Part shown: piece by piece, positions 30,001 through 32,875 of the stretch
Numbering within the stretch: the first letter of the stretch is position 1
How the letters are laid out: every line of letters begins with the position of its first letter
DNA from: Chlamydiota bacterium
Lineage (GTDB): Bacteria > Auribacterota > Tritonobacteria > UBA1439
NCBI GenBank assembly: GCA_037133055.1
Contig: JBAXOY010000021.1
Span: forward strand, 1 to 32,875
DNA: 32,875 nt
Direction: 5' to 3'
Position numbers: made by a program

Positions 30001-32875
30001 GGATGATTTTCCGATGCGGGAGACGAAGGACCTCACCTCGACGTCCCGCCCGTAAAAGAGCTCCCCTTTGTACTCGACCTCGAGCCTTGCCATGACCAGG
30101 TTCCATTTCTTCAGGTCGAGGCCCGGGTTGAATATCCGGTAGAGCGGGTTCCGCGCCCGCTCGAACCAGAGCGGGAGCGCCGTGTTGGTGATGTGCCCCA
30201 TCCCGTCCGCATCGCCGAATCGCGGTTCTATCGTCTTCGTATACATGGAGTTAGCGCCCCTTATCCTAATCTCATAGGGTAGACTTTAGTCCGCCCTATG
30301 GCAATGATAGCATCATTACTTTGCCGCCCCCCACCCTCTTTGTTATACTAATGCTGTTCTTTGACATCCGCTTTTTACTGGAAACGAGTAACGAGCAACT
30401 GTTGTATTCCCCGGTAGCTCAGTTGGTAGAGCAGGTGGCTGTCAACTTTCGCCTCCGGCGAAAGTTGATCTCGAGCACGCCGTCAGGCGAGCGAGAGATC
30501 TTCACTTTGAACCGGAGTCGAATCAAATGGCAGCCCCACGTGGAAACGCGTGGGTGAACAGCGGGCTAATTCAGGGAACTCTAACCCGAAGGGTTAGACC
30601 TCGAGCGCAGCGAGAGGCCTTTCCCTTCGGTACGACAATCCTGAGCGAAGCCTTGGCTCTTCGAGCCTCGGAACGTGCAGAGACTATACACCCGCTACCT
30701 AACTCCGGCGCCGCGCCTTTTTTTGTTTTCCGTAGGGCAGCCTTCAGGCTGCCCGCGGAAGGTCGGCGTCGGACACGGTAAAGAGAGAGTCCAGGCCTGG
30801 TGGAAACATCGGGGGTACCTGTAACCACCGTGCCGCAGGTTCGAGTCCTGCCCGGGGAGCCAAAATAGAAAAGGCCCTCACATGAGGGCCTTTTCTATTT
30901 TGGGATTGAGCGAGGGCTGCGCACGCAGCCCGAGTCGAAATCCCTTCCGGGGCTGAAAGCGTCACATCTGTTATTCTTCCTATTCCAACACGGCAATAAT
31001 GTCTTTCTCTATAATTTCATCCAATCCCCGCCTTATCTTCTTCTGCCACTTATCGGGAATGGATTTAAATACGCGGTGGAGTATATCAGCCTCACCCTTG
31101 TCAATCAGTGCCCTTAGAATTCCAATCGCGGCATTTTTATCTTTCACTGCTTTATCTTCTTTCGCTCTTCGCTGAAATATAATCAACTTATGCAATGCAA
31201 AATTGGCCGGGTGAGGCACCGTTAGATAAAAACCTTCTATCCTGACCTTTATCGTATTATCGGTTAGAAAATTGAGAAATCGTAATGCGGTGGCGCTTAT
31301 CCCCAAGCCAGGAAGATTGTAGGGCTTATCCATGCCCCTGCCTTTTTCAGGCACGAGGAATTCCAGTATCAGGTCCGCATGAGCCAGTTTCATATAGCCC
31401 TTTTCTGCTTCCATTACTTTTACATAGCCAAGATCCTTGAGCATAAGAGGTATATTGACCTCAGTACGCAGCGTATGGGGGGCAGCAATAAGAAAATCCA
31501 TATCCCTCGTTTTTAGCGCGGTGTGGTCTATAAACGGCCGGGGAGCGAAATATTCCCTATAAAAGACGACACACCAGCTGCCGATAAGGATAAAGTCATT
31601 CAGGAGATGGGCCTTGTTGAACCTCCTGAGAACTTCATAACACAGATCATATTGCTTCTTTTCCACGCAACGAACTCCTCAAGAACTTCACTTGTTTCTT
31701 GACCTGTGACAACAACTTCCGATATCTCGCCCTCATAAGCTTGGCATCCATATATCTCTTCTTTTCTTCCTCCGATACCTTGCCTTTATACTTGTACCCG
31801 ACTTTTGCGCCGACCCTTTTTACCAAATAGAAATACTCATGCCCCCCGATTTTTTTTGCAACAAGGCACCCCTGGGGCAGCTTGCGCAAGGCATTCTCGT
31901 ATTCCCTTTTCATCCGAAGAGAATTCTCCAACTCCTCAGCCAGGACACCTTTTATCACGCCTTTCATACACTCTCCGATTACCCAACATCACTATAAGCA
32001 GTGTAGCATGTTAGGTAATAGCGGTCAAAACTAATACTACCCAACATACTGATTATCTCGCCTCGATGTTGGATAACTGTCACTGCCCGGCACTCGGGAG
32101 CCCCGCTTCCCGACAGAAATACAATCTGTTTTCCGGCAACCACGCCGACACATATTTTGCTACCATGCGGCGATAGTCGTGAGTTCGATTCATGGAATAG
32201 GGATTGGCTATGTCCCTGAAGTTGTAAAGGATTTCTATCAATGAAAGACAACGCTCGAGATATATCATTATGGGTCAATAAAGAGGAATTCGCACTCTTG
32301 GATGAAGCCTGTCTATTCGGAGCAGATGCTGACGAGAACCTTGATAATCCCGAAAAAAAAGGGCGGATATCGCATCTATTTTACATATGAAGAACTCGAC
32401 GATTTGGCCGGTTTCGTCGCAGCGGGCGCTAATCATGAAACGTCGCGCCGCAATCAGGAACGACGGGATAATCTATACGCTAAAATTGACAGCCTTCTGA
32501 AGTTCAATGACCCCACCAATTATCCGCCATGCTACCAAATTCAACAAGTTCAGCAGTGTACTCTGAGATATTTCATTTTTGACATCTGGATTGAGAGCGG
32601 AAAGGGCTATAAAGCCTCCTCAAGAGTCTTACGACGCATTCAAATCGCCGAGACGAAGAGCCTTTATAACTTCGCGAAGGTCATCACGCATGCCTTCGGC
32701 TTCTATTTCGACCACTGTTTCGGATTCTACGATAATTTCAAACGATATCACGATTCAAAAAAGGCCTACGAAGTATTCGTGGACATCGGGGAAGATCCTT
32801 TATCTCCCAACACTAAAGGCGTTGTAGCGCCCCGCTAATTATGAGACAGATTTGACGGATAAATGGGTAACACTT

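Follow-up and report, generated by a model that had tools for sequence, protein, structure and literature searches.

A probable self-splicing group I intron of a widespread family splits the anticodon of a tRNA-Asn(GUU) gene in an uncultured Auribacterota bacterium

Among tRNA-borne group I introns, that of Azoarcus combines a length of about 205 nt with a small core running from P1 to P9, GAAA loops on P2 and P9, and a P1 helix that forms by opening the anticodon stem. In the cyanobacterial tRNA-fMet intron, a homing endonuclease is an optional companion, and in Patescibacteria introns at position 35/36 of tRNA-Asn and tRNA-Asp, together with splicing assays, were reportedly described by Nakagawa and colleagues in 2025. 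The cyanobacterial tRNA-fMet intron with I-Ssp6803I is cited in PMC3984707, and passages of PMC4476775 present a tRNA-Leu(UAA) intron whose peripheral stem-loop P6b is filled with repeat motifs. Drawing on GenBank assemblies of January 2017, the main text of Williams (2020, bioRxiv 10.1101/2020.01.27.920355) extends the four classical bacterial tRNA host settings to 21 and reports 5292 introns; like the one described here, these group I introns lie in the anticodon loop of a tRNA, position -1 being occupied by U and omega by G, and the numbering used there, in which Leu.3Ug denotes insertion after U34, would name a split after U35 of tRNA-Asn 'Asn.4Ug'. The word 'Asn' is absent from that main text, its settings table and supplements aside, and the genome studied here and its loop insertions are not discussed in it. 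A passage of PMC12641178 cites a 2025 preprint (Nakagawa et al.) on Patescibacteria, a phylum other than that of our bacterium, whose title announces a new tRNA intron site, and passages of PMC13168695 and PMC11835236 do not mention Asn; our literature search for tRNA-Asn introns returned only the Williams survey and this citation. The tRNA-Asn 35/36 intron class has very probably been published already, and the proposal of a first-pass annotation that a new host tRNA joins a short list of four has to be given up, because the list already comprised 21 settings in the main text of that survey and the 35/36 site of tRNA-Asn seems to be in print already. What is slightly fresh are the enlarged loops, one of them with a dispersed REP-like hairpin copy, and a P7 whose last pair is a mismatched A·G.

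The window, that is, the whole stretch of 32,875 nt analysed here, belongs to a 2.99-Mb Auribacterota bin and contains a tRNA-Asn(GUU) gene at 30408-30862, the two exons of which are split within the anticodon, between U35 and U36, placing the insertion in the Asn 35/36 class:

30321-30349, plus strand: promoter-like site (-35, 17-nt spacer, extended -10); one site found against 0.5 expected in shuffles, weak taken alone
30408-30442, plus strand: 5' exon of tRNA-Asn(GUU), 35 nt, ending C32 U33 G34 U35; partial Rfam tRNA match of 23 bits
30443-30821, plus strand: group I intron, 379 nt, with no protein gene; its last base is omega-G
30822-30862, plus strand: 3' exon of tRNA-Asn(GUU), 41 nt, starting U36 A37 A38 and ending in an encoded CCA
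30860-30904, plus strand: long near-perfect palindrome with a 21-pair stem directly behind the tRNA, a possible terminator

The borders of the intron are fixed independently by the uninterrupted gene of close relatives, two from the same genus (G053 and G054) and one from the same family (G050). The 5' exon is identical to theirs at 34 of 35 bases, and the 3' exon at 41 of 41, as it is to that of G049, another member of the family; jointly, the exons match the intact tRNA-Asn at 75 of 76 bases, the sole difference lying in the D-loop. The first-pass annotation was thus exact as to the coordinates, the U35/U36 split and the length of 379 nt, and the joined exons do recreate the anticodon arm of the relatives' gene. 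The locus of G053 is orthologous and lacks the intron, its upstream thioesterase gene being 84% identical, and the extended -10 motif is retained upstream of tRNA-Asn in both G053 and G049. The palindrome was not among the sites returned by a terminator scan.

The Rfam model Intron_gpI (RF00028) matches 30509-30813 with 55 bits (cut 50, E 2.5e-12), the only group I match in the bin at E<=0.1. A covariance model of the core built from 15 other introns, with the bacterium's own genome and G049 held out, scores the 379-nt intron at 66.1 bits (E 1.4e-12 in the genome), the next match in the 7.9 kb searched reaching 12.5 bits. Owing to the length of the P8 insertion, the S element is missed in its alignment, in keeping with the earlier suggestion that peripheral insertions are to blame for the modest Rfam score. 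The folding z-score of the intron is -7.0, and its elements lie as follows:

30443-30529, plus strand: structured insertion in the P1 loop (L1), 87 nt against a family median of 11 nt, at the place of the HNH frame in relatives
30530-30535, plus strand: internal guide sequence GCAGCC, pairing with exon positions 30437-30442, with a U35·G30530 wobble at the 5' splice site
30536-30553, plus strand: P2 hairpin with GAAA loop; seven of seven pairs change on both sides in 23 relatives
30560-30696, plus strand: catalytic core, 89-99% of cells paired per helix
30560-65 with 30691-96, plus strand: P3, core helix
30571-76 with 30639-44, plus strand: P4, core helix; P5 region enlarged
30645-47 with 30674-76, plus strand: P6, core helix
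30680 and 30682-86, plus strand: 5' strand of P7, core helix
30697-30779, plus strand: P8 (30697-99 with 30777-79), carrying a 77-nt insertion
30732-30755, plus strand: GTAG-led REP-like palindrome within P8, the stem of which sequesters a second copy of the guide letters
30787-30792, plus strand: 3' strand of P7; G30682-C30791 intact, last pair A30686·G30787 mismatched
30793-30821, plus strand: P9.0 (30793-95 with 30818-20), P9 (30796-30813, GAAA loop) and omega-G (30821)

In the folded precursor, the six guide-exon pairs have probabilities of 0.99, 1.0, 0.99, 0.99, 0.99 and 0.57. The U·G wobble in P1 (U30442·G30530, probability 0.99) and the terminal omega-G (G30821) of group I introns are both present, as is the P3-P4-P6-P7 core with its R and S elements, supported by the Rfam score above cut and by covariation. 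All invariant core positions of the intron alignment are kept, and the guanosine-site pair G30682-C30791 is invariant in 23 of 23 relatives. In a covariation test which leans in favour of the structure, this having been taken from the 379-nt intron itself and compared with 23 hand-picked kin of the same subtype, 89.7% of 941 core cells formed standard pairs against 71.1% in shuffles, none of 500 being as high, and the figure dropped to 30-48% when partners were slid; 27 of the 41 core pairs change on both sides across the 23 relatives. P9 is 86% paired, with covariation, and P9.0 only 37% paired as aligned, thus unsupported by the count. P6, P8 and P9.0 receive low probabilities (0.02-0.22) in nearest-neighbour folding, a model outside which pseudoknot and tertiary contacts fall. 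Five of the six P7 pairs are Watson-Crick, and the last, A·G, is seen in no other of the 116 introns parsed (14 of the phylum and 102 others), 112 of which have A-U or U-A there; the search pattern left this pair free, and one of the four exceptions (L089) is a parsing slip. Since the same letters appear in RNA-library contigs, the mismatch does not stem from faulty assembly. Of three short frames that overlap the intron (78, 84 and 85 aa), none matches Pfam, and the intron holds no homing endonuclease frame.

Judged by eye, the small core resembles the subgroup IC3 or Azoarcus architecture. The intron shares with that of Azoarcus the small P1-P9 core, the GAAA loops on P2 and P9 and a P1 formed by opening the anticodon stem, but differs from it in host tRNA and site, in its long L1, L5 and L8 and in the P7 that ends in A·G. 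It is not the compact ribozyme that it was first taken for, as with its loop insertions it reaches 379 nt and far exceeds the family median (about 260 nt). As in the cyanobacterial tRNA-fMet intron, a homing endonuclease is optional in the family, but it is here HNH-like and located in L1; and whereas P6b of the tRNA-Leu(UAA) intron, in the passages cited above, holds short tandem repeats, the tRNA-Asn intron carries a GTAG-type REP-like palindrome with dispersed copies.

Taken together, these features make it highly likely that the tRNA-Asn(GUU) gene is a working one into which a group I ribozyme with a small, Azoarcus-like core, from a widespread family, is inserted after U35, and the intron, judging from its sequence, is probably self-splicing. 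By established group I chemistry, a precursor would be transcribed from the promoter-like site upstream, and base pairing between its guide and the end of the 5' exon would open up the anticodon stem and create the U35·G wobble. A free guanosine docked at the G30682-C30791 pair of P7 would attack after U35, omega-G 30821 would then occupy the same site, and the 3'-OH of U35 would attack before U36, so that exon joining would restore the GUU anticodon. The family presumably spreads by means of the HNH homing endonuclease encoded in the P1 loop; the 379-nt copy, having hairpins in place of the HNH gene, would now be inherited vertically or lost. If unassembled DNA contains no second gene, asparagine decoding needs this splicing, as with any intron-bearing single-copy essential tRNA.

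A pattern scan of GTDB genomes returned at least 120 matches, and in 102 of the 120 listed a matching 5' tRNA half lies 184-578 nt upstream, the other 18 having no 5' half in the DNA examined. The pattern forces the terminal G and the start of the 3' exon, and the parser the exon end, so that identity of the site is built into the search, unlike the finding that both halves occur and are complementary in the anticodon stem. The 102 introns listed represent at least 24 named phyla plus 19 unassigned records, and the phyla among the matches listed include Nitrospirota, Acidobacteriota, Bacillota, Omnitrophota, Cyanobacteriota and several Patescibacteria groups. The same tRNA-Asn site is occupied in records of WWE3, Saccharimonadota and Peregrinibacteria, among them the complete WWE3 genome CP006914.1, which, by its date, we take to have been within the dataset of the survey that listed 21 settings. 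Ten viral contigs match the 3' pattern, four of them with a parsed 5' half. Three records labelled as archaea carry the same tRNA-Asn intron (two Woesearchaeota and one Methanosarcinales: L098, L108 and L114, labels taken as given), and a copy in a Klebsiella-labelled record (L148) groups with Nitrospirota introns, that record being probably mislabelled or contaminated. An HNH-like motif occurs, remnants included, in 22 of the 116 introns, in the P1 loop where read; within the phylum it is found in G015, where the L1 frame matches Pfam HNH at the cut-off (E 2.8e-4), and in G024. Four introns with short L1 loops (L075, L104, L109 and L117) keep only the last HNH codons and form a series of nuclease loss.

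Within a set of 79 Auribacterota genomes (our own being G000), the tRNA-Asn is split after U35 in 14, belonging to eight families (G000, G001, G003, G014, G015, G018, G019, G021-G024, G043, G046 and G049), by introns of 233-655 nt. All ten intron-bearing relatives named at the outset are among them, joined by three more (G001, G015 and G046), and the closest relatives (G053, G054 and G050) are indeed uninterrupted. An uninterrupted gene was found in about 36 genomes (34 of 79 by pattern, plus G004, read directly, and G020, with abutting halves), and about 30 of the 79 yielded neither form. The claim that the intron is a lineage-wide feature of the phylum fails on these numbers, and its presence in at least 24 named phyla rules out a phylum-specific feature. 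A history in which a single old intron passed down the phylum by descent, with loss in many branches, nevertheless deserves consideration, given that its bearers span eight families, that the nearest intron, among those listed, comes from the same-family genome G049 (89% of core columns), ahead of Omnitrophota and Planctomycetota copies, and that families f1 and f9, joined by f7 when judged by eye, have a 5' L1 hairpin in common in their introns. In a first tree (113 introns, 254 columns; L081 and L121, with misplaced guide, and the duplicate L086 dropped, long branches flagged), however, the 14 introns require seven changes and do not form one clade (AU p 0.0002). A second tree built on 115 anchored core columns from 105 introns (10 having failed an anchor and one duplicate left out) again gives seven changes, of which the well-supported branches force only two, and likewise rejects one clade (AU p 0.001); in favour of descent, the core blocks do not reject a smaller clade comprising 10 of the 14 (p 0.065). 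Rejection of one clade implies at least two introductions into the phylum and contradicts a single origin for the phylum as a whole, and the coexistence of two structural subtypes, with and without an extension after P7, the many intron-less genomes and the HNH-bearing copies speak against it as well, so that we regard this history as unlikely. For our bacterium itself, the data fit both retention of an old family-level intron lost by G053, G054 and G050 and its regain, and either may have happened.

Whether the gene works at all bears on a second alternative, in which the intron, with its P7 mismatch and bulky repeats, is decayed or sluggish, the gene a recent pseudogene and a second tRNA-Asn lies outside the assembly. 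The bin, with 45 plain ARAGORN calls and 40 Rfam tRNAs above cut, is 92% complete and has no tRNA called for Ile(GAU), Ala(UGC), Lys(UUU) or Arg(UCU), which makes a second tRNA-Asn outside the assembly possible. Within the assembly, the assertion that this is the only credible tRNA-Asn(GUU) withstands scrutiny: no further copy of either exon occurs within nine mismatches in the whole genome; the 'tRNA-Asn' on C31 is a false call, present only in the ARAGORN list, with no Rfam tRNA match at E<=1 and devoid of D- and T-loop consensus; and weak tRNA matches on C65 and C148, considered as Asn halves, proved to be the 3' end of a tmRNA-like sequence and a solitary 3' half of a tRNA. Decay would also agree with the P7-end A·G, unique among the 116 introns, with the split and intact genes that occur together in G019 (a bin 8% contaminated), and with the absence of a spliced form from the RNA data. 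These data comprise contigs from four runs of one study (X1-X4; at most two samples, possibly including the source sample), X5 and X6, with small shares, having been left out. A 448-nt contig of X1 equals 30410-30857 with no differing letter and bridges both exon-intron junctions, one of X2 bridges the 3' junction, and contigs of X3 and X4 cover parts, so that the unspliced form is present in the RNA libraries; DNA carry-over is possible, and transcription is not thereby proven. Neither a spliced junction nor an excised circle was seen in the X1-X4 contigs, and an apparent loose end at 30442 and a joint 30434-30836 derive from tRNAs of other organisms (three differing letters, another 3' half). 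The flanks 29800-30360 and 30871-31300 have no RNA contig cover in this one study, a pattern not counted as proof of transcription. Against decay, all invariant core positions are kept, the mismatched pair is the terminal one of its helix and lies apart from the guanosine site, the exons are 75/76 identical to the intact gene while adjacent coding DNA is only 84% identical, and three close relatives show one uninterrupted tRNA-Asn each; we therefore hold it to be quite improbable. Still less can be said for a product other than tRNA-Asn, namely tRNA-Asp(GUC), or for excision of the insert by a protein endonuclease. ARAGORN in intron mode does report 30408-30862 as tRNA-Asp(gtc), but with wrong borders, and does so because the intron begins with C, a base that varies freely among relatives; such a cut would violate the U/G rule, with C preceding the 5' site and U closing the intron; the anticodon of the intact orthologue is GUU; and a separate tRNA-Asp is present on C100 of the genome, all of which leaves this outcome hardly credible.

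The P8 hairpin matches copies on C38 and C58 at 26 of 28 bases, with weaker copies elsewhere, and has the GTAG palindrome and dispersed copies of REP elements, in a copy number low for a REP family. Perfect hairpins form at 12 of the 559 GTAG-GG sites of the genome (11 places), whereas eight control leaders, having 72-2037 sites, yield 0-4 and ATAG yields 8 of 613; seven of 15 hairpin places examined lie outside any long frame, though 92% of bases lie inside one. As to a cognate RAYT transposase flanked by such repeats, the genome has eight Y1_Tnp matches, one of them with a GTAG palindrome of the same loop letters within 900 nt. The guide-like letters in P8 were considered as a rival P1 and dismissed (competition probability 0.0). 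Related hairpins occur in P5, P6 or P8 of G018, G022, G023 and G049, and REP-like words in 7 of the 14 phylum introns against 4 of the 102 others listed, a contrast biased because the motifs were picked from the phylum's own introns. In L1, a similar 5' hairpin was found by pattern in 6 of the 14, across both core subtypes, and in none of the 102 others listed; a pattern search of the genome gave no further copy of L1 hairpin B. We infer that REP-like repeats landed in tolerant loops, and L1, L5 and L8 would then be neutral space that gathered the host's short palindromic repeats; exchange of the L1 module between introns is possible (p 0.065). A bolder proposal, to which we give a chance well short of even, is that the peripheral loops of an essential tRNA intron offer a safe harbour to transposase-spread REP-like hairpins, which landed independently in L1, L5, L6 or L8 of different genomes, and that the L1 hairpin module replaced the HNH gene and passed between introns with different cores. 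A brief literature search, too narrow to call the arrangement undescribed, found no REP elements inside group I intron loops.

The DNA behind the tRNA-Asn has a GC content of 44-46% (30900-32875) against 64% for the genome and is unlike the downstream DNA of G049, G050 and G053, which is similar among these three. It holds an NTP_transf_8 nucleotidyltransferase gene (30980-31666, minus strand), a 106-aa partner that overlaps the start of this gene, and a pRiA4b ORF-3-like frame. The stretch has the appearance of foreign DNA at tRNA-Asn; a search for an att repeat, or for a repeated tRNA 3' end that would mark an integrated island, gave none of 14 nt or more. G054 and G024 come from different families; directly behind tRNA-Asn their sequences (L004 and L037) are almost the same, a likeness which suggests a shared integrative element there. 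Elsewhere in our genome, the tRNA 3' half on C148 (2989-3048) stands alone, as left by an integration event. Other tRNA genes of the phylum also carry group I introns: a 73-bit match (L042, G040:C30:77-386, minus strand) lies after U33 of an apparent tRNA-Lys(UUU), and five more (L046, L051, L052, L047 and L048, in G037, G046, G040, G070 and G039) lie in three fMet-like genes, one tRNA-Leu(UAA) and one tRNA-Arg-like gene, G046 thus bearing both an Asn and an fMet-like intron. Two loci lie outside tRNA genes (L049, G077:C16, and L053, G039:C69), the latter with two intron cores close together in rRNA-like sequence.

The locus adds neither a new host tRNA nor a phylum-defining trait. ARAGORN without intron mode finds no tRNA in the window, and since standard calling misses the gene or reports tRNA-Asp, genomes of this kind seem to lack an essential tRNA. 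The pair with and without intron inside one genus suits the study of intron gain and loss, and the natural mismatch at the end of P7, combined with repeat-filled loops, suits tests of ribozyme tolerance. If the safe-harbour reading were true, these introns would provide a natural series of ribozymes that absorb mobile DNA while splicing, here even with a broken last pair in P7.
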